From positions 446,010 to 510,009 of the forward strand of contig CAVSIG010000005.1 of NCBI GenBank assembly GCA_963728005.1: 64,000 nt of DNA. The letters are read 5' to 3'. Shown piece after piece: positions 4,315 through 12,744 of the stretch (position 1 is the first letter of the stretch; each line of letters begins with the position of its first letter). Made by a program: the position numbers and the translations under genes. Origin of the DNA: an uncultured Microthrixaceae bacterium. GTDB taxonomy: Bacteria; Actinomycetota; Acidimicrobiia; Acidimicrobiales; DATDAH01. A model generated the notes under the pieces. It saw only the letters and a program-made list of their open reading frames with translations. It did not search any database and was not told the origin of the DNA.

Positions 4315-5667
4315 GTGACGCTCCGCTTCGGCACCGACGGTGTCCGGGGCCACGCCGAGAGCGAGCTGACCCCCGAGCTGGTCGTCGCGCTGGGCCGCGC
4401 CGCAGCCCGGGTCCTCGGCGGCGCCCCCGTCGTCATCGGCCGCGACACCCGGGCGTCCGGCTCCCGGCTGGAGGCCGAGCTGGCCGCCGGCCTCGAGGCC
4501 GAAGGCCTGGCCGTCCGCCGCGTCGGCGTCGTGCCCACGCCCGCCGTGGCCCACGCCTCGGCCGTCGACGGGGTGACCGGGGCCATGATCTCGGCGTCCC
4601 ACAACTCCTTCGAGGACAACGGGATCAAGTTCTTCGCCCCCGGTGGCACGAAGCTCAGCGACGAGGTCGAGGAGCGGCTCGAGGCCGAGCTGGACCGGTT
4701 GCTGCACGAGCCGCAGCCCCAGGTCGACGGTGGCACCGACAGCCCGGCCGGCGACGTCGCCGTGGCCAGGGCCTGGGTCGACTCGGTCGTGGCCTCCGTC
4801 CCCGAGGCGGCGCTGGCCGGGCTGACGCTGGTCGTCGACTGCGCCAACGGGGCCGCCTCGGACTGGGCACCGGACGCCCTACGCCGCCTGGGCGCCTCGG
4901 TCGACGTGATCCACGCCGAGCCCGACGGCACCAACATCAACGCCGGGTGCGGCTCGACCCACCCCGAGGACCTACAGGCCCGGGTGATCGAGCTGGGGGC
5001 GGACGCCGGCCTGGCCTTCGACGGGGACGCCGACCGTGTGGTGGCGGTCGACGCCGACGGCGCGCTGGTGGACGGTGATCACCTCATCGCCATCTGCGCA
5101 GCGGACCGCCACCGCCGCGGCGTCCTTGTCGACGACACCGTGGTGGTCACGGTCATGGCCAACCTCGGCTTCCGGCTCGCCATGGACGAGTTGGGCATCC
5201 GTGTGGTGGAGACCGCGGTGGGGGACCGCTACGTGCTGGAGGCGTTGGCCGACGGCGGGTGGACGCTCGGTGGCGAGCAGTCCGGGCACGTGATCTTCCC
5301 CGACCTGGCCACCACCGGCGACGGGCTGCTGACCAGCGTCCAGGTCCTGGCCGCCGTGCAGGCGGCGGGCCAGACCCTGGCCGATGCCGCCTCGGTGATG
5401 ACCTCGCTGCCCCAGGTCCTGCGCAACGTGCGGGTGGCCGAGCGCCGGCCCGACATCGCCGAGCTGTTGGCCGATGCCATCGCCGCCGCCGAGGCCCGCC
5501 TCGGGCCCCGTGGCCGGGTGCTGGTCCGCCCGAGCGGCACCGAGCCCCTGGTGCGGGTCATGGTCGAGGCCGAGGACCTGACGGTGGCCGAGGCCGAAGC
5601 CGACGAGCTGTCGGCGGCCGCCAAGGTGGCGTCGGCCGGGGGTGGGGTGGGCACGACCAGAGCCTGA
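4315..5667 (+). CDS. glmM: Phosphoglucosamine mutase
   Basis: FGTDGVRG, active-site ISASHNSFEDNGIKFF, GDGDADR-type FDGDADR, GEQSGH. Position after rpsI. Confidence 0.92.
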   Translation: MTLRFGTDGVRGHAESELTPELVVALGRAAARVLGGAPVVIGRDTRASGSRLEAELAAGLEAEGLAVRRVGVVPTPAVAHASAVDGVTGAMISASHNSFEDNGIKFFAPGGTKLSDEVEERLEAELDRLLHEPQPQVDGGTDSPAGDVAVARAWVDSVVASVPEAALAGLTLVVDCANGAASDWAPDALRRLGASVDVIHAEPDGTNINAGCGSTHPEDLQARVIELGADAGLAFDGDADRVVAVDADGALVDGDHLIAICAADRHRRGVLVDDTVVVTVMANLGFRLAMDELGIRVVETAVGDRYVLEALADGGWTLGGEQSGHVIFPDLATTGDGLLTSVQVLAAVQAAGQTLADAASVMTSLPQVLRNVRVAERRPDIAELLADAIAAAEARLGPRGRVLVRPSGTEPLVRVMVEAEDLTVAEAEADELSAAAKVASAGGGVGTTRA

Positions 5668-5704
5668 AGGCCTCCCACATCGCCACCAGGTGCCCCGGTG
5701 GGCG

Positions 5705-8104
5705 ATGATCGTCATCGTGGGAGGGCTGCGGGCGGGGGCACGGGGGTACCGCTTCCGCGCCGAGCTGCGGCAACGCCGCTGGGCGTGGGTGGGGGTGGCC
5801 GCCGTCATCGGGCTGTCGGCCGGGCTCGTCCTGGCCCTCGTGGCCGGCGCCCGGCGCTCCGACACCGCCATCGAGCGGTTCGTCGAGGGGGCGAACGCCC
5901 ACGAGGACCTGGTCATCAGCGGCATCCCCGGCACCTTCGACTTCGCCGCCGTCGAGCTGGAACGGGTCGCCGGGCTCCCCGGGGTGGCCGACAGCCAGGA
6001 GGCCATCGTCCTGGCGGGAGCGGGGCGGACGGAGGACGACCTCCTGATCGACTCCAGCACGGTGAACTTCCTGGCCGACCCGTCGGGGCGCATCGGTCGG
6101 GAGCTGAACCGATTCAAGGTGTTGGACGGTCGCCTGGCCGACCCCGACGACCCGCACGAGGTGGTGGCCGCCTTCCGGACCGCCGAGGCCTTCGACCTCG
6201 AGGTCGGGAGCAGGCTTGACGTGAACATGCTCGACGAGCAGGAGCTCCAGGGGATCTTCGGCGGCCAGACCACGTTCGACGAGCTGTCCACGGCTGAGCC
6301 CCGAGAGCGCTTCGAGGTGGTGGGCGTCGTCGTCGAAGCCGGTGGGCTGGCCCCGCCCGCGCCCGACGACACGACCACCCTGTGGCTCACGCCAGCCGCG
6401 GCCGACCAGTTCGGCTCGTCCAGCATCGTGCAGACCCTCCTCGTGCAGCTGGACGGAGGCCCGGAATCCGAAGGCGCCTTCCTCGACGACCTGGAGCGCC
6501 TCGGCGGTGGGCAGCCGGTGCTCACGATCTCCACCCCGGACGACGCCGACAACGCGGACCGTGGCCTGCGGCCGATCGTCCGGGCCTTGGCCCTGACCGC
6601 CCTCCTGCTGGCGGTCGTGACCGCGTTCGTGGTCGGGCAGGTCCTGTCCCGCCAGGCCTCGGCTGAGGCCGGTGACGACCCGGCCCTGCGCGCCCTGGGC
6701 TGGACGACCCGGGACCTCCTGCGCATCCGGACCACGAAGGCGCTCGTCATCGGCTTCGCCTCGGCGGTGATGGCGGTGGTCACCGCCATCGCCCTCTCGC
6801 CGCTGTTCCCGCTCGGCCTGGCCCGCATCGTCGAGCCGGATCCGGGCGTCGACGTCGACGGTGCTGTGCTCGTCGTGGGGGCCGTCGGCGTGCTGGTCCT
6901 GGTCGCGGGCCTGGCGTCGCTGACCGGGTGGTGGGACCTTCGGCGGGCGACCCGGCGTGCGCTGCGCCGGCCCAGCCGCCTCGTGGGGGCCGTCAGCCAG
7001 TCCGGGGCGCCGCCGCCCATCGCCGTCGGCACCAGCCTGGCCGTGCAGGCCGGCGACGCCGGGTCGGCCCCACCCGTCGTGTCGGCGGGCGCCACGGTGG
7101 CCCTGGGCCTCGGCACGGTCGCCGCCGTCCTCGCGTTCATGGCCAGCCTCGGCCACCTGACCGACACCCCGACGCTGTACGGGTGGAACTGGGACATCGA
7201 GCTGGGCCAGGAGTTCTCCACCGAGCTCGAGGACGCCGACGTGGCCTGGCTCGGGGACGACCCGGCGATCGAGGCCCTCGCCGTCGGCACCACCGCGTCG
7301 TTGACCGTGGGCGAGGAGCGCATCGACGCCTACGCGGTGGACGACGTGGTCGGCGCCATCGAGCCGTCGCTGCTGAGCGGGCGGCGGGCGGAGGGTCCCG
7401 ACGAGATCGTGGTCTCGCCTGACGTGGGCGACGTCGGCGACGACGTCACGGTCCAGTTCGCCGGCCAGGTGGCGGACCTGGAGATCGTCGGCCACGCCGC
7501 CGTCCCCCGGGCCCAGGCCCTTCTCACCTTCGAGGGTCTGCAGCGGATCGCCCCCGAGTCGCCCCGCCAGACCGCCCTGGTCGTGCTCCGCGACGGCGCC
7601 GACCAGCGGGCCTTCGTCGACCGGGCCGTCGAGGAGCTCGGCTACACCGGCCAGGACATCGCCACCCCCGAGCTGCCGGACGACCTCGTGAACTTCGGCC
7701 GCGTCGACGCGGCGCCCGCCGTGGTGGCCATTGCGATGAGCATCGTGGCGGTGGCCACGCTTGTCCACGCCCTCGTCACCACCGTCCACCGCCGTCGGCG
7801 TGACCTGGCCGTCCTGCGGGCGTTGGGGCTGACCCGTCGCCAGGTGCTGGCGACCGTCGGTTGGCAGGCGGTGGTGATCGTGGCCGCGGCGGCGATCGTG
7901 GCCGTTCCCCTCGGCGTGGCCGCCGGGCGGTGGGGCTGGATCCTCTTCGCCGACGAGCTGGAGGTCATCAGCCAGCCCGTGGTGCCGGTCCTCGCGCTGC
8001 TCGCCGCGGCCCTGGTGGCCATCGTGCTCGGCGAGGCCGTCGCCCTGGCTGCCGGCCGTTGGTCCGCGGGGCGCTCGGCGGCGGCCACCCTGCGGGCCGA
8101 GTGA
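5705..8104 (+). CDS. FtsX/MacB-like ABC transporter permease (two FtsX modules) with no adjacent ATPase gene
   Basis: ~800 aa with N- and C-terminal 4-TM blocks and large extracytoplasmic domains. Contains RRDLAVLRALGLTRRQVLATVGWQAVVIV. The start (ATG 5705 versus GTG 5642/5690) is uncertain. Confidence 0.75.
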   Translation: MIVIVGGLRAGARGYRFRAELRQRRWAWVGVAAVIGLSAGLVLALVAGARRSDTAIERFVEGANAHEDLVISGIPGTFDFAAVELERVAGLPGVADSQEAIVLAGAGRTEDDLLIDSSTVNFLADPSGRIGRELNRFKVLDGRLADPDDPHEVVAAFRTAEAFDLEVGSRLDVNMLDEQELQGIFGGQTTFDELSTAEPRERFEVVGVVVEAGGLAPPAPDDTTTLWLTPAAADQFGSSSIVQTLLVQLDGGPESEGAFLDDLERLGGGQPVLTISTPDDADNADRGLRPIVRALALTALLLAVVTAFVVGQVLSRQASAEAGDDPALRALGWTTRDLLRIRTTKALVIGFASAVMAVVTAIALSPLFPLGLARIVEPDPGVDVDGAVLVVGAVGVLVLVAGLASLTGWWDLRRATRRALRRPSRLVGAVSQSGAPPPIAVGTSLAVQAGDAGSAPPVVSAGATVALGLGTVAAVLAFMASLGHLTDTPTLYGWNWDIELGQEFSTELEDADVAWLGDDPAIEALAVGTTASLTVGEERIDAYAVDDVVGAIEPSLLSGRRAEGPDEIVVSPDVGDVGDDVTVQFAGQVADLEIVGHAAVPRAQALLTFEGLQRIAPESPRQTALVVLRDGADQRAFVDRAVEELGYTGQDIATPELPDDLVNFGRVDAAPAVVAIAMSIVAVATLVHALVTTVHRRRRDLAVLRALGLTRRQVLATVGWQAVVIVAAAAIVAVPLGVAAGRWGWILFADELEVISQPVVPVLALLAAALVAIVLGEAVALAAGRWSAGRSAAATLRAE

Positions 8105-8129
8105 CCGGGTCAGAGGGTAGGAAAGGGCC

Positions 8130-8864
8130 GTGAGCGAGCCGATGGTGACCGAGCCCGACCAGCCGGCGGTCGCCTGGCGCATCCTCCTGGCGGGCGTGGC
8201 GTTGCTGATGATCCTGCTGGCGCTCGTCATCCAGGCCACCCAGGGGACGGCAATCCCGCCCCTGATCATCGCCGTCGTGTTGCTCGTCGTCGGCCTGGTC
8301 CTGCTGATCCTGCGGCCGAAGATCGGCGCCATCACCGTCGGCGTGGTCTCGGTGCTGATGGTCGTCGGCAACCTGACCTTCGTCCTCGCCGACATCGGGC
8401 ATCCGGAGTCGTTCTGGTCCTTCGTCCCGGCCGCGCTGGCCGTGGTCGGTGCCGTCCTCGGGCTCGCCGGCCTGGTGGCCGTTTTCCGTCACGTCGGCTC
8501 GGGGCCGGCGAGCATCGTCGGCGTGGTGGGCGTCACCGCCGCGGTTGCCGTGCTGGCCGTGGGCGCGGTGAGCAGCGGCGGCCAGGAGGACGATGTGAAG
8601 CAGGAGGGCGACATCGGCATGTTCGCCCAGGACATCGAGTTCAAGCCCGACGACCTCCAGGCCCCGGCCGGCGAGCTGGGTGTCTTCATCGGCAACGACG
8701 ACTTGGTCCGGCACACGTTCACGATCGACGAGCTGGACGTGGACGAGGAGCTCCCGTCGAAGGCCTTCGTGCGGTTCACGTTCGAGGCCGAGCCCGGGAC
8801 CTATGAGTTCTACTGCGACGTCCCCGGCCACGAGGACATGACCGGAACCCTGGTCGTCTCGTAG
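8130..8864 (+). CDS. Polytopic membrane protein with a C-terminal cupredoxin (type-1 copper) domain
   Basis: About 5 hydrophobic helices, then HTFTIDELDV...FTFEAEPGTYEFYCDVPGHEDMTGTLVV (a His...Cys-x2-His-x3-Met copper-ligand pattern). Confidence 0.7.
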   Translation: MSEPMVTEPDQPAVAWRILLAGVALLMILLALVIQATQGTAIPPLIIAVVLLVVGLVLLILRPKIGAITVGVVSVLMVVGNLTFVLADIGHPESFWSFVPAALAVVGAVLGLAGLVAVFRHVGSGPASIVGVVGVTAAVAVLAVGAVSSGGQEDDVKQEGDIGMFAQDIEFKPDDLQAPAGELGVFIGNDDLVRHTFTIDELDVDEELPSKAFVRFTFEAEPGTYEFYCDVPGHEDMTGTLVVS

Positions 8865-8906
8865 TCCCGGCCCCTCCGCGCAGGGCCTTCCTACACTGGT
8901 CCATCC

Positions 8907-11900
8907 ATGTGCGGGATCATCGCTGTCGTCCGTCGACCGTCCGACCGCGTGCCGGCGTCGAGCGAGGCGCTCCTCGCCCTGGCCGAGCGGGCCGCCGAGG
9001 ACGCCGGTGGCTTCGCCCACCTGCCCCCGGGCGTGGAGCTGGCCGAGCTCTTGACCACGGTCACCGCTCCGCTGACCCAGGTGGACGACGCCCTGCGGGG
9101 CTCGGCGGGCGTGCGCACCCTGCTCTCCGACGCCGCCCTGGCCCCGACCCTGGACCGGCTGGCCGCCTCCGTCGAGGCCCGGGCCGACGCGGTCGAGGGG
9201 GCGCTCGACCACGCCGAGTCGCTGGGCTCGACGGCTGACCTCGAGCGGGTCAACGCCGCCCTCGTCGCCCTGCGGGACGCCGCCTGGGCCATCCGCCGGG
9301 ACCGCCTTCCCACGGCGGCCAAGGTGGCCGAGCTGGCCGGCTCCGACCCCGGCCGGGCCGCCATCGAGGCCTGCCTGTCCATCCAGCAGGTGCTGTCGGC
9401 CATCGACCGCCTGGAGGTCCGGGGCCGGGACAGCGCCGGCGTGCACGTCCTGGTGCACGGCCACGACCTGGACCTGGGGGCCCCCGCAATTCGGGCGCTG
9501 CTGGAGGGCCGGGACCAGGACCCCCGCTTCGTCAACGGCGCCGTCCGGGTGACCGACGGCGGCCACCTGGCCTTCGTCTACAAGGCCGCCGCCGAGATCG
9601 GTGAGCTGGGTGACAACACCGCCGCCATCCGAGCGGCGATCGTGGCCGACCCGCTGTTGCGGCTGGCCCTCGACCGCCCCCGCGCTGAGGCCGTCATCCT
9701 GGGCCACACCCGGTGGGCCAGCGTCGGGATCATCTCCGAGCCCAACGCCCACCCCGTGTGCGGCGAGGAGTCCGACGGCGTGCCCCGGCCGTACGTGGCC
9801 GCCGCCCTCAACGGCGACGTCGACAACCACGCCGACCTCCGCTCGGAGGAGGGTCTGGTCGTGGCCGCCGAGATCACGACCGACGCCAAGGTCATCCCCG
9901 CCCTGACCGCCCGCCGTCTGGCCGAGGGTCACGACTTGGACGAGGCCTTCCGCCGGACGGTGGCCACGCTGGAGGGCTCGGTGGCGATCGGCGCCACCAA
10001 TGCCGTCGCTCCCGAGCAGCTCCACCTGGCCCTGCGGGGGAGCGGGCAGGCCCTCTACGTGGGGCTGACCGACGGCGCCTACGTGGTCGCCAGCGAGCCG
10101 TACGGGCTGGTCGAGGAGACCACCACCTACGTCCGCATGGACGGCGAGACCCCGGCCAACCCCGAGAACCCCACCGCCAGTCGCGGCCAGGTCCTGGTCC
10201 TCGACGGCGCCCGGGCGGGAACCCTCGAGGGCATCCGGCGCATCGCCTACGACGGCACCGAGCTGCCGGTCACCGAGGCCGACGTGGAGCAGGCCGAGAT
10301 CACCACCCGCGACATCGACCGCGGCGAGTTCCCGCACTTCCTGCTGAAGGAGATGACCGAGGCCCCCGGCTCGTTCCGCAAGACCCTGCGGGGTCGCCTG
10401 ACCGAGCGGGACGGGCGGGCCACCGTCGACCTGGGCCCGGAGACGCTGCCCGACGACCTGCGGAAGGCGTTGCGCGACGGTCGCATCCAGCGGGTGCTGG
10501 TCACCGGCCAGGGCACGGCGGCGGTCGCCGGCCAGAGCCTGGCCGCCACGCTGGAGGCCCTCACGCCCGACCTGCCGGTCCGCGTCGAGTCGGTGGTGGC
10601 CACCGAGCTCTCCGGCTTCGAGCTGGCCGACGACATGAGCGACACCCTGGTCGTCGCCATCTCGCAGTCGGGGACCACGACGGACACCAACCGGACGGTG
10701 GACCTGGTCCGCTCGCGGGGCGCCAGCGTCGTCGCCATCGTCAACCGGCGGGGGAGCGACCTGACCGACAAGTCCGACGGCGTCCTGTACACCTCCGACG
10801 GCCGGGACGTGGAGATGAGCGTGGCCTCCACCAAGGCCTTCTACGCCCAGGTCGCGGCCGGCGTGCTGCTGGCCGCCGCCCTGGCCGAGGAGCTGGGAGC
10901 GGCCGACTCCGGCGAGCGGGCGTCGATGCTCGCCGCCCTGCGTGGCCTGCCCGACGCGCTGGCCAGCGTCCTCGAGGATCGCGAGCGCATCGGGGTCACC
11001 GCCCGCGAGCTGGCACCGAGCCGTCGTTACTGGGCGGTGGTGGGCAACGGCCCCAACCGCATCGCCGCAGCCGAGGTCCGGATCAAGCTCTCCGAGCTCT
11101 GCTACAAGTCCATCGCCTGCGACGTCACCGAGGACAAGAAGCACATCGACCTGTCGTCGGAGCCGATGATCCTGGTCTGCGCCGCCGGCCTCACCGGATC
11201 CAACGCCGACGACGTGGCCAAGGAGGTGGCGATCTACCGGGCCCACAAGGCGGCCCCGGTGGTGATCGCCACCGAGGGCGAGGGTCGCTACACGTCGGCC
11301 CTGCAGGCCCTGACCGTGCCCCCGACCCACCCCCGGCTGGCCTTCGTGCTGTCGGCCATGGTGGGCCACCTGTTCGGCTACGAGGCCGCCCTCGCCATCG
11401 ACGAGGGGGCCCGCCCACTGCGGGAGGCCCGGGCTGCCATCGAGCAGGCCGTGGGCACTCGGGTGGAGGGCGCCGATGCCGAAGCCCTGCTGGAGGACCT
11501 ACGCCCCGAGTTCGAGGCGCTGGCCGGCCGCTTCGCCGACACCCTGCGCAGCGGCGGCTACGACGGCCACCTCGAGGCCAGCACCGCCAGCCGCGCCAGC
11601 GCCCTGTTCCGGTATGCCCTGGGCACCTCGCCGCTGGACGGCTACCAGGCCGAGTACGGCAAGGTCGGGACCCCCGGCGTGATCGTCGAGGACCTGACGT
11701 CGGCGCTGACCCGGGCCATCGAGGAGCTGACCCGACCGATCGACGCCATCAAGCACCAGGCCAAGACGGTCACCGTGGGCATCTCCCGCACCGACGAGAC
11801 GCTGCTGCAGGTGCCTCTGGTCCGCGAGGTCATGGCCGCCGGCGCCCCCCGGGACGGCCTCACCTACCAGGCCCTGCGCACGCTGGCCGACCTGGACCCT

Positions 11901-12368
11901 GCGATCGCCGAGGTCATCGGCTGGACCCGCTACCGCATCGAGGGTCGACCGGAGCGCGGCGACGCCCGCATCGTGGCCCTGGACCGCGGCGGCGTGGCGG
12001 CCGGCATCCCCACCCGCACCGACCAGGACCAGCGCCTGCGAGGCACCAAGAACCGGGTCGCCACCGAGCGTCAGGTGCTGGTGGCCACCGGCCGCCGGGA
12101 CGGGCGCCCGATCGTGCTCGTCCCCGAGACGAAAGACGGTCAGCCCACCGGCCTGACGCTGCTGCACGTCCGCTTCCGGGACCGCATCTCGGCGGCCACG
12201 GCCCGGGGCGTGCTCCAGGGCTACCGGGACCGCTACGCGCTCCTCCGGGACGCCGTGACGGAGACCGAGCCCACGTTCCGGGAGGACCTGCTGGCCGAGA
12301 TCGACGTGGCCGACCTGCTGGTCGCCTCGATCACGTCGCTGGCGGACCGGTTCCGCAGCGAGAGCTGA
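8907..12368 (+). CDS. Atypically long (1152-aa) GlmS-like glutamine amidotransferase with two SIS domains, a large N-domain insertion and a C-terminal extension
   Basis: MCGII (Ntn Cys), RLEVRGRDSAG, GHTRWASVG, NGDVDNHADL, FLLKEM. SIS1: ISQSGTTTDT...ASTKAFYAQ. SIS2: GNGPNRIAAAEVRIKLSELCYKS...KKHIDL. Single uninterrupted frame. Occupies the glmS slot upstream of acpS. Confidence 0.8.
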   Translation: MCGIIAVVRRPSDRVPASSEALLALAERAAEDAGGFAHLPPGVELAELLTTVTAPLTQVDDALRGSAGVRTLLSDAALAPTLDRLAASVEARADAVEGALDHAESLGSTADLERVNAALVALRDAAWAIRRDRLPTAAKVAELAGSDPGRAAIEACLSIQQVLSAIDRLEVRGRDSAGVHVLVHGHDLDLGAPAIRALLEGRDQDPRFVNGAVRVTDGGHLAFVYKAAAEIGELGDNTAAIRAAIVADPLLRLALDRPRAEAVILGHTRWASVGIISEPNAHPVCGEESDGVPRPYVAAALNGDVDNHADLRSEEGLVVAAEITTDAKVIPALTARRLAEGHDLDEAFRRTVATLEGSVAIGATNAVAPEQLHLALRGSGQALYVGLTDGAYVVASEPYGLVEETTTYVRMDGETPANPENPTASRGQVLVLDGARAGTLEGIRRIAYDGTELPVTEADVEQAEITTRDIDRGEFPHFLLKEMTEAPGSFRKTLRGRLTERDGRATVDLGPETLPDDLRKALRDGRIQRVLVTGQGTAAVAGQSLAATLEALTPDLPVRVESVVATELSGFELADDMSDTLVVAISQSGTTTDTNRTVDLVRSRGASVVAIVNRRGSDLTDKSDGVLYTSDGRDVEMSVASTKAFYAQVAAGVLLAAALAEELGAADSGERASMLAALRGLPDALASVLEDRERIGVTARELAPSRRYWAVVGNGPNRIAAAEVRIKLSELCYKSIACDVTEDKKHIDLSSEPMILVCAAGLTGSNADDVAKEVAIYRAHKAAPVVIATEGEGRYTSALQALTVPPTHPRLAFVLSAMVGHLFGYEAALAIDEGARPLREARAAIEQAVGTRVEGADAEALLEDLRPEFEALAGRFADTLRSGGYDGHLEASTASRASALFRYALGTSPLDGYQAEYGKVGTPGVIVEDLTSALTRAIEELTRPIDAIKHQAKTVTVGISRTDETLLQVPLVREVMAAGAPRDGLTYQALRTLADLDPAIAEVIGWTRYRIEGRPERGDARIVALDRGGVAAGIPTRTDQDQRLRGTKNRVATERQVLVATGRRDGRPIVLVPETKDGQPTGLTLLHVRFRDRISAATARGVLQGYRDRYALLRDAVTETEPTFREDLLAEIDVADLLVASITSLADRFRSES

Positions 12369-12372
12369 CCCC

Positions 12373-12744
12373 GTGGTCGTCGGCGTCGGGACCGACCTGG
12401 TCGACCTGGACCGGTTCCGGCAGGCGGCCGAGCGGACGCCGGGCATCCTGACCCGCTACTTCACCGAGGGCGAGCGCGCCTACGCCGAGCGGCGCAACGA
12501 CCCCACCGAGCGCTACGCCGCCCGCTTCGCCGCCAAGGAGGCGGTGATGAAGGCGCTGGGCGTCGGCCTGGGCGCCTGCGCGCTGGTCGAGATCGAGGTG
12601 GTGCGGGACGAGGACTCGGGCGCCCCCGACCTGGTCCTCCACGGCAAGGCCGCCGCCCTGGCCGAGGAGCGGGGCGTCACCGCCTGGCACCTCAGCCTCA
12701 GCCACACCGACACCGCCGCCCACGCAATGGTGATCGCCACCTGA
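12373..12744 (+). CDS. acpS: Holo-[acyl-carrier-protein] synthase
   Basis: VVGVGTDLVDLDRF...FAAKEAVMKALG...SLSHTDTAAHAMVIA in a 123-aa ORF. Confidence 0.9.
   Translation: MVVGVGTDLVDLDRFRQAAERTPGILTRYFTEGERAYAERRNDPTERYAARFAAKEAVMKALGVGLGACALVEIEVVRDEDSGAPDLVLHGKAAALAEERGVTAWHLSLSHTDTAAHAMVIAT

Follow-up and report, generated by a model that had tools for sequence, protein, structure and literature searches.

A predicted double-length glucosamine-6-phosphate synthase with an internal lid occupies the glmS locus of a Microthrixaceae bacterium

Introduction

The glucosamine-6-phosphate (GlcN6P) synthase GlmS is an essential and very uniform cell-envelope enzyme and an antimicrobial target; as its mechanism is taught, a free C-terminal tail acts as the lid of the active site. 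To our knowledge this lid is a free C-terminal tail in every GlmS that has been characterized, and in the Escherichia coli enzyme the ammonia channel becomes ordered when the lid closes over the sugar site. Here we describe a gene found in a 64,000-nucleotide stretch of DNA (hereafter the window) from an uncultured Microthrixaceae bacterium of the class Acidimicrobiia (assembly GCA_963728005.1, contig CAVSIG010000005.1, positions 446,010 to 510,009). This long-form glmS, at 8907..12368 of the window on the + strand, encodes a protein of 1153 amino acids (aa). We propose that the protein is a housekeeping GlmS (EC 2.6.1.16) of a monophyletic "long" subfamily whose added modules may control the closure of the lid, a reading to which we assign a probability of about 0.7.

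The closest well-described enzyme is E. coli GlmS (609 aa; PDB 1jxa, 2j6h and 4amv). The long form shares with it the N-terminal Cys, the class-II glutaminase, the two SIS subdomains, the tested catalytic and fructose-6-phosphate residues (with four exceptions) and the AK(S/T)VTV motif of the lid; moreover, it lies in the same genomic slot as the canonical GlmS of its relatives. In contrast to E. coli GlmS, it is nearly double in length, shows only about 30% identity to the canonical enzyme, scores below the family cut-off and falls in a separate clade. It carries a 135-aa helical insert, a second insert in the glutaminase and a 114-aa insert ahead of the lid, and its lid is internal, being followed by a 190-aa PAS-like domain.

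Two other enzymes are relevant for comparison. Human GFAT1/GFPT1 (about 680-700 aa; PDB 6r4e and 6svp), which gave the best full-length structural matches to the long form (Foldseek E value about 3e-22), is a GlmS homologue with a regulatory insert in the glutaminase domain, controlled at the protein level through feedback by UDP-N-acetylglucosamine (UDP-GlcNAc) and through phosphorylation (PMC3224219). In GFAT, however, the insert is short and lies elsewhere, the lid is still C-terminal, and neither a PAS-like domain nor an N-terminal helical bundle is present. The 180-kDa glutamate dehydrogenase of Mycobacterium smegmatis, L-GDH180 (PDB 7jsr), is likewise a central enzyme of nitrogen metabolism that has been greatly enlarged; its additions are helical motifs together with ACT-like and PAS-type modules, the latter present in its N-terminal region, for which its authors suggest a role in metabolic sensing (PMC8175468). 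It is the best structural match of the C-terminal domain of long GlmS, even though its catalytic domain is unrelated and no sequence similarity to it was detectable. Finally, the Bacillus subtilis protein GlmR/YvcK and the glmS ribozyme, a cis-acting RNA of Firmicutes, tune the output of GlmS to the demand for cell-wall precursors (PMC6171935). The long form may tune this output within one polypeptide.

Results

The window contains the long-form glmS as a single uninterrupted open reading frame (ORF), which begins with the codons ATG-TGC (Met-Cys) and ends with a TGA stop codon at 12366-12368. An earlier note, made from the letters of the window, had described an uninterrupted, double-length ORF of 1152 aa in the canonical glmS position; the frame is indeed intact and starts with Met-Cys, but its length is 1153 aa. 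The motifs listed in that note were each found in the translation, namely MCGII, RLEVRGRDSAG, GHTRWAS, NGDVDNH and FLLKEM, together with SQSGTTTDT, STKAF, KLSELCYKS, KKHIDL and KHQAKTVTVGISR.

The protein was aligned to E. coli GlmS (NC_000913) and within a family alignment of 32 long forms, and we inspected a list of residues of the E. coli enzyme which we take, from the GlmS literature, to be the important ones. The names of four of them, K603, H504, E488 and K485, recur in PMC9272926. In E. coli numbering, the residues invariant in all 32 long forms were C1, R26, G27, D29, R73, W74, H86, N98, G99 and D123 of the glutaminase, followed by T302, S347, Q348, S349, T352, V399-K403, E481, K485, E488, K503, H504, A602, K603 and V605-V607; the sole changes at the tested positions were T76S, H77V, S303A and G505I. 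Most of these residues were still invariant after the addition of eight distant long forms from other phyla, and M1, C2 and G3 did not vary among 30 long forms from several phyla, which places the nucleophile of the N-terminal nucleophile (Ntn) fold right after the initiator Met (M-C-G-I-I). In the numbering of the Microthrixaceae protein, the invariant positions comprise the glutaminase-site equivalents R172, R269, W270, N302, G303 and D326 (32/32), the sugar-phosphate loop S586-Q587-S588-G589-T591 with V639-K643, and the isomerase catalytic equivalents K727 (K485), E730 (E488), H746 (H504) and K953 (K603). All the catalytic features of GlmS membership are present, with the residues for glutamine hydrolysis, sugar-phosphate binding, ring opening, Schiff-base formation and isomerization retained, and this pattern argues strongly that long GlmS is an active enzyme.

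The locus agrees with this assignment. Upstream lies glmM, encoding phosphoglucosamine mutase (4315..5667, +; TIGR01455, 503.3 bits against a cut-off of 447.55), and acpS, encoding holo-acyl carrier protein synthase (12373..12744, +; NF000832, 117.9 bits against a cut-off of 107), starts 4 nt past the glmS stop codon. The synteny extends to acpS in relatives and to glmM in all the relatives examined: the order glmM-glmS-acpS was observed at the loci of four canonical-form relatives from the same order and class, where GlmS has 604-613 aa, and likewise in the long-form relatives IMCC26207, Aquihabitans, Ferrithrix and two further genomes. As the order of the slot is the same with either form, the long gene is the positional equivalent of glmS, in line with the canonical position claimed for it earlier.

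In the source genome, whose assembly of five contigs has a completeness of 56.7%, we found glmM, glmU and murA, and no canonical glmS, not even a fragment, no nagB and no candidate for a deaminase consisting of SIS domains only. Judging from these matches, long GlmS would be the sole GlcN6P-forming enzyme found in this genome. The two forms of the enzyme were almost mutually exclusive across the genomes sampled. Among 151 genomes of Acidimicrobiia, 84 had a canonical GlmS scoring over the cut-off and 63 had only the long form, while one held a canonical fragment, three had neither and none had both. Among 401 genomes of the phylum, a canonical GlmS was present in 351 and the long-form C-terminal module in 39, these including three families outside the class; one genome had both. 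The long form was also the only one found in a metagenome-assembled genome (MAG) of Desulfobacterales, where it adjoins genes for a penicillin-binding protein transpeptidase and a cytidylyltransferase.

Divergent long forms are assigned by their sources to Eremiobacterota/Xenobia/Vulcanimicrobiota, Armatimonadetes, Riflebacteria, Schekmanbacteria, Planctomycetota and Desulfobacterales, and contigs carrying them reach 3.9 Mb in some cases. They retain all four additions with the same lengths; identity is 26-38% across the extra modules, 53-59% for the isomerase part and as high as 83-100% for the lid. When residues 831-1153 were searched against 1.84 billion representative proteins, 684 clusters matched; in the best 150 of these, the region resided within GlmS-like proteins of about 1070-1280 aa or within shorter, probably partial sequences, and no other architecture was seen.

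A quick tree, based on 602 columns shared by 30 long and 24 canonical sequences, grouped the long forms in one clade with a Shimodaira-Hasegawa-like approximate likelihood ratio test (SH-aLRT) support of 100. The Actinomycetota long forms constituted one subclade (support 99), the members from other phyla branching first, and the canonical GlmS of Acidimicrobiia clustered with other actinobacterial GlmS; the long stem branch makes the rooting of this tree unsafe. The topology suggests that the long form is an old, separate subfamily that replaced the canonical gene at the same locus, or was replaced by it. A recent divergence in situ from the canonical glmS of the neighbors found no support, since the long forms form a separate clade in which other phyla branch first.

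The layout of the protein can be followed along the alignment with the E. coli enzyme. The nucleophile, Met1-Cys2, and the first beta-strand occupy residues 1-12 (8907..8942, +), where MCGII aligns to MCGIV of E. coli. They are followed by an N-terminal helical-bundle insert, residues 13-148 (8943..9350, +), which corresponds to a gap in E. coli GlmS. The core of the class-II (Ntn) glutaminase spans residues 149-470 (9351..10316, +; Pfam GATase_6 at 261-397), and the isomerase part, with its two SIS subdomains, spans residues 471-830 (10317..11396, +; Pfam SIS at 528-657). A helical insert between the second SIS subdomain and the lid, again a gap in E. coli GlmS, covers residues 831-944 (11397..11738, +). 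It precedes the internal "C-tail" lid, IDAIKHQAKTVTVGISRT, at residues 945-962 (11739..11792, +), whose AKTVTV aligns to A602-K603-S-V-T-V607 of E. coli and whose equivalent of the Schiff-base lysine, K953, is encoded at 11763-11765 (+). The remaining residues, 963-1153 (11793..12365, +), make up the C-terminal alpha/beta domain, PAS-like in its AlphaFold2 (AF2) model, with a helical extension. Much of this had been read from the sequence in the earlier note: an insert of about 150 aa between the nucleophilic Cys and RGRDSAG, which measures about 135-150 aa in the alignment; an internal C-tail motif, whose lysine we place at K953 with 200 residues after it; and a further domain of about 200 aa, which comprises about 190 aa. 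Two additions that were not part of that description are an insert of about 50-75 aa between RGRDSAG and HTRWAS (approximately residues 186-260) and the 114-aa helical insert at 831-944.

Conservation differed widely among these segments. The lid was the most conserved one, with a mean top-residue frequency of 0.94 and 12 of its 18 positions invariant across phyla. Within the class, the N-terminal insert showed 32-45% identity and the middle insert (831-944) 56-71%; across phyla, three residues of the former (E113, W127 and D132) and four of the latter were invariant. The second glutaminase insert carries the motif FVYKAAAEIGELGDN (residues 223-237, window 9573-9617), without counterpart in E. 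coli GlmS, in which K226, E230, G232, G235 and N237 were invariant across phyla. In the C-terminal domain the residues invariant across phyla were G1005, Y1009, G1029, R1037, L1044, G1046, K1048, G1062, D1065, P1073, H1087 and E1119; they include basic and polar side chains located on the sheet and on the helical segment, and such a set would suit a site that binds an anionic metabolite, or else an interface of fixed geometry.

Within the helical extension that follows the PAS-like domain, the segment D-A-V-T-E-T-E-P-T-F-R-E-D (residues 1115-1127, window 12249-12287) was nearly invariant in the long forms of Actinomycetota, and the predicted local distance difference test score (pLDDT) of the full-length model fell below 50 at residues 1119-1122. 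This segment may serve as an interface to the catalytic body.

Profile searches recognized little of the extra modules. On the whole protein, Pfam identified just the class-II glutaminase (261-397) and one SIS domain (528-657), the second SIS being visible through GlmS-wide alignments and through a fold match; for the extra modules, searches with the whole protein and with 41 sequences of the C-terminal domain yielded just a sub-threshold match to DUF7124. Profiles built from the alignments of the N-terminal insert, the middle insert and the C-terminal domain gave nothing significant against the sequences of the PDB: the N-terminal insert matched just designed or coiled-coil helices, the middle insert had no solved relative, and the top match of the C-terminal domain was the GAF-derived 6mgh, with a non-significant E value of 0.37.

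The full-length AF2 model had a mean pLDDT of 76.4 and a predicted template-modeling (pTM) score of 0.70. Its N-terminal insert was modeled as helices at 19-33, 43-62, 65-74, 78-101 and 109-144, with pLDDT mostly 87-97 in this block, and the region of the middle insert as helices at 836-851, 858-881, 891-905, 910-917 and 923-953. Foldseek aligned the full model to human GFAT1 and to E. coli GlmS with E values of about 1e-22 and template-modeling (TM) scores of 0.61-0.68, and to isolated isomerase domains of GlmS and GFAT with TM scores of 0.82-0.86, all normalized by the target. Separate PDB alignments to 1jxa and 6r4e extended to residue 826. Residues 935-1153 were also modeled on their own, from 41 sequences, with a pLDDT of 87.9 and a pTM of 0.82. 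In this model an N-cap helix is followed by two strands (66-78 and 87-95 in the numbering of the model), three short helices (96-99, 103-106 and 112-120), three strands (124-127, 134-142 and 145-156) and the helical extension. This is the order of a PAS domain, and the five-stranded antiparallel sheet of the PAS/GAF type, with two strands, helices and then three strands, is present. The top Foldseek match was 7jsr, with an E value of 6.5e-4 and a query-normalized TM score of 0.44; the aligned part of 7jsr is not evident from this match. The next matches were GAF domains (5w10, 3ci6, 3p01 and fRMsr) and sensor domains of the PAS/Cache type, with E values from 3e-3 to 3e-2 and TM scores of 0.23-0.42.

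Discussion

Our results support the view that the long form is a housekeeping GlmS, and the invariant residues, the conserved slot and the nearly complete mutual exclusion with the canonical gene all bear on this identity. The earlier note had suggested a regulated or oligomerization-variant GlmS; of this proposal the GlmS identity stands on those three lines of evidence, and the predicted PAS-like C-terminal domain would fit the rest. No paper describing such forms was found in our literature searches, and public databases name them "SIS domain-containing protein" or, automatically, GlmS. The long form is best called a new, uncharacterized subfamily (a variant) of GlmS.

How might such a protein work? 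Cys2, bared by removal of the initiator Met, would hydrolyze glutamine, and the ammonia would then move to the isomerase site, where K953, E730, K727 and H746 would turn fructose-6-phosphate into GlcN6P. The lid that would close over this site lies between the 114-aa helical insert and the 190-aa PAS-like domain, and because it is tied on both sides to these added modules, its closure should depend on their position. We propose that the modules may govern how the lid closes and thereby how the two active sites are coupled; binding of a metabolite or a shift in oligomeric state would be the trigger, and regulation at the protein level would be built into the enzyme. The architecture hints at this regulatory role less firmly than the catalytic residues speak for the enzyme itself. 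A more specific version, which we offer only tentatively, is that the PAS-like domain binds a metabolite of the pathway (for example UDP-GlcNAc, GlcN6P or a signal of nitrogen status) and, being fused right behind the lid, would open or close it and thereby turn glutamine hydrolysis and amination on or off, the N-terminal bundle setting the oligomeric state. If this were true, a self-regulating GlmS would be a third, intramolecular solution to feedback, in addition to control by RNA (the glmS ribozyme or small RNAs) and by GlmR or UDP-GlcNAc inhibition.

Several observations weigh against our proposal. Three features of the family are lacking: the lid is not C-terminal, the length lies outside the usual 600-700 aa or so, and the scores fall below the curated cut-offs. 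The protein reached 233.8 bits with the glmS model TIGR01135 (residues 260-830; cut-off 418.05) and 250.7 bits with NF001484 (cut-off 381). A stem of about 7.9 substitutions per site parts the long from the canonical GlmS, and because of this very long branch a shifted specificity is conceivable on the sequence alone. Both forms occur in the cultured Aquihabitans sp. G128, as well as in a MAG of 5% contamination (G264); these two cases break a strict mutual exclusion and indicate that the two forms are not strictly interchangeable. As for the added modules, the lid at residues 950-965 had a pLDDT below 50, too low for the model to show its docking in the active site, the fold matches of the C-terminal domain were weak (TM 0.23-0.46, E values of 6.5e-4 or higher), and its 41 members gave no PAS or GAF match in Pfam at E values up to 1. 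Given these weak matches, the lack of a PAS/GAF Pfam hit and the lack of a profile match, the model supports a PAS-like fold for this domain and membership of a sensor family is not supported.

Other explanations must be considered. The assembly has indel errors elsewhere (murA spread over three frames, a truncated glmU frame and a completeness of 56.7%), which could favor an artefact, either an assembly chimera or a frameshift read-through fusing glmS to unrelated sequence. We regard this as vanishingly improbable. Among 5.8 billion proteins searched, 7021 clusters of relatives were identified, the best 120 of which were mostly of 1130-1194 aa, with 63-99% identity and nearly all aligned across the full query, and homologues at 100% coverage and equal length keep all the segments in length and sequence. 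A pattern scan with one genome per species detected the sequence of the C-terminal part at no fewer than 594 loci, complete or cultured genomes such as those of Aquihabitans sp. G128, strain IMCC26207, Ferrithrix thermotolerans and Microthrix being among them, and the identical architecture recurs in other phyla. In addition, the GC content at third codon positions (GC3) in the glmS frame was uniform, 0.93-1.00 for each segment past codon 12, the added segments included (0.75 in the first 12 codons). The added segments are not low-complexity read-through, and there is no sign of non-coding or out-of-frame DNA. The thousands of full-length homologues mean that long GlmS is not an assembly fusion, and together with the species genomes and the in-frame GC3 they rule out a chimera or a hidden frameshift, the two pitfalls raised in the earlier note; indel errors affect other genes of the assembly, and long glmS itself is intact.

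It is also conceivable, although improbable, that the protein is an amidotransferase/isomerase with a different substrate or product, as the earlier note had contemplated for another sugar phosphate, and that GlcN6P is obtained from elsewhere, for example by uptake of amino sugars. The scores under the GlmS cut-offs, the identity of about 30% on a very long branch, the changes S303A and H77V at residues near the substrates in E. coli GlmS, and the second, canonical enzyme of Aquihabitans sp. G128 would all be compatible with such a shift. On the other hand, the S-Q-S-G-x-T loop, V-A-S-T-K, the equivalents of K485, E488, H504 and K603 and all the glutaminase residues are invariant, and the gene fills the glmM-acpS slot. 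Moreover, a canonical GlmS was not found in 63/63 long-form genomes of the class, in 38/39 of the phylum or in the Desulfobacterales MAG, and neither nagB nor SIS-only deaminase candidates, nor any other source of GlcN6P, were found in the source genome; with the fructose-6-phosphate and isomerase residues invariant, we disfavor this possibility. Rather unlikely, but deserving more weight, is that the protein is housekeeping GlmS whose extra modules are purely architectural, a scaffold for quaternary structure or stability without ligand sensing or allostery. The N-terminal and middle inserts are plain helical bundles with just three and four residues invariant across phyla, no recognizable ligand-binding family was matched, the presence of GlmR/YvcK-type regulators does not track the type of GlmS, and PAS-type domains frequently act as dimerization modules (PMC8175468). 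Against a mere scaffold speak the invariant polar and charged residues Y1009, R1037, K1048, D1065, H1087 and E1119 of the C-terminal domain, which favor a binding site or a specific interface, and the covalent attachment of the lid between two added modules, which can hardly leave catalysis free of any mechanical coupling.

If our reading of a housekeeping GlmS with modules acting on the lid is right, it has several implications. The long form is used in Acidimicrobiia and in scattered members of several other phyla, being the only GlmS found in most such genomes, and it would show that the lid need not be C-terminal. It would also offer a natural system in which to ask how closure of the lid links the two active sites, and it may reveal a new feedback at the protein level in the synthesis of amino sugars. 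Metabolic reconstructions of Acidimicrobiia (such as Microthrix, Iamiaceae and marine or freshwater lineages) may wrongly score the pathway as incomplete, because annotation gives just "SIS domain-containing protein". Aquihabitans sp. G128 represents a natural test case for the redundancy of the two forms: its long form lies in the glmM-acpS slot (L075, NZ_CP077604.1 3893899-3906546), and its canonical GlmS of 604 aa is encoded elsewhere (L092:8720-10534), beside a gene with 5'-3' exonuclease domains.

We also considered whether the long form substitutes for a regulator of the GlmR/YvcK/CuvA type and rejected this idea, as no correlation of TIGR01826 with the type of GlmS was seen; the long form does not visibly replace this known regulator. 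The model had no match in the source genome, in the long-form families f2 and f3 or in the canonical families f9 and f14, and it was present in most other long-form families. Families f2 and f3 belong to the same order, with TIGR01826 in 0/25 of their sampled genomes, and the model was present in most other families of Acidimicrobiia. Neither the glmS ribozyme nor any other Rfam family was detected in the whole 64-kb window.

Regarding the other genes of the source genome, the murA gene is broken across three frames (G000:C2:236011-237248), and the match to glmU ends at position 344 of the 452 of the model, within a frame of 369 aa (G000:C2:478818-479876). The broken frames, taken with a completeness of 56.7% in only five contigs, point to frequent indel errors in the assembly, probably of long-read origin, rather than to real pseudogenes.

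As for the organization of the operon, a spacer of 42 nt (8865-8906) precedes the ATG of long glmS; we recognized no obvious Shine-Dalgarno sequence in it and no sigma-70-like promoter between 4000 and 13500 of the window. Long glmS probably shares a transcript with acpS and with the genes upstream. Between glmM and long glmS (window 5642-8864) lie two ORFs of 820 and 244 aa, neither with an NCBIfam match, and in four relatives glmM is found directly 5' of glmS. Since glmM directly precedes glmS in these relatives, the operon seems to have acquired the ORF pair by a local insertion.

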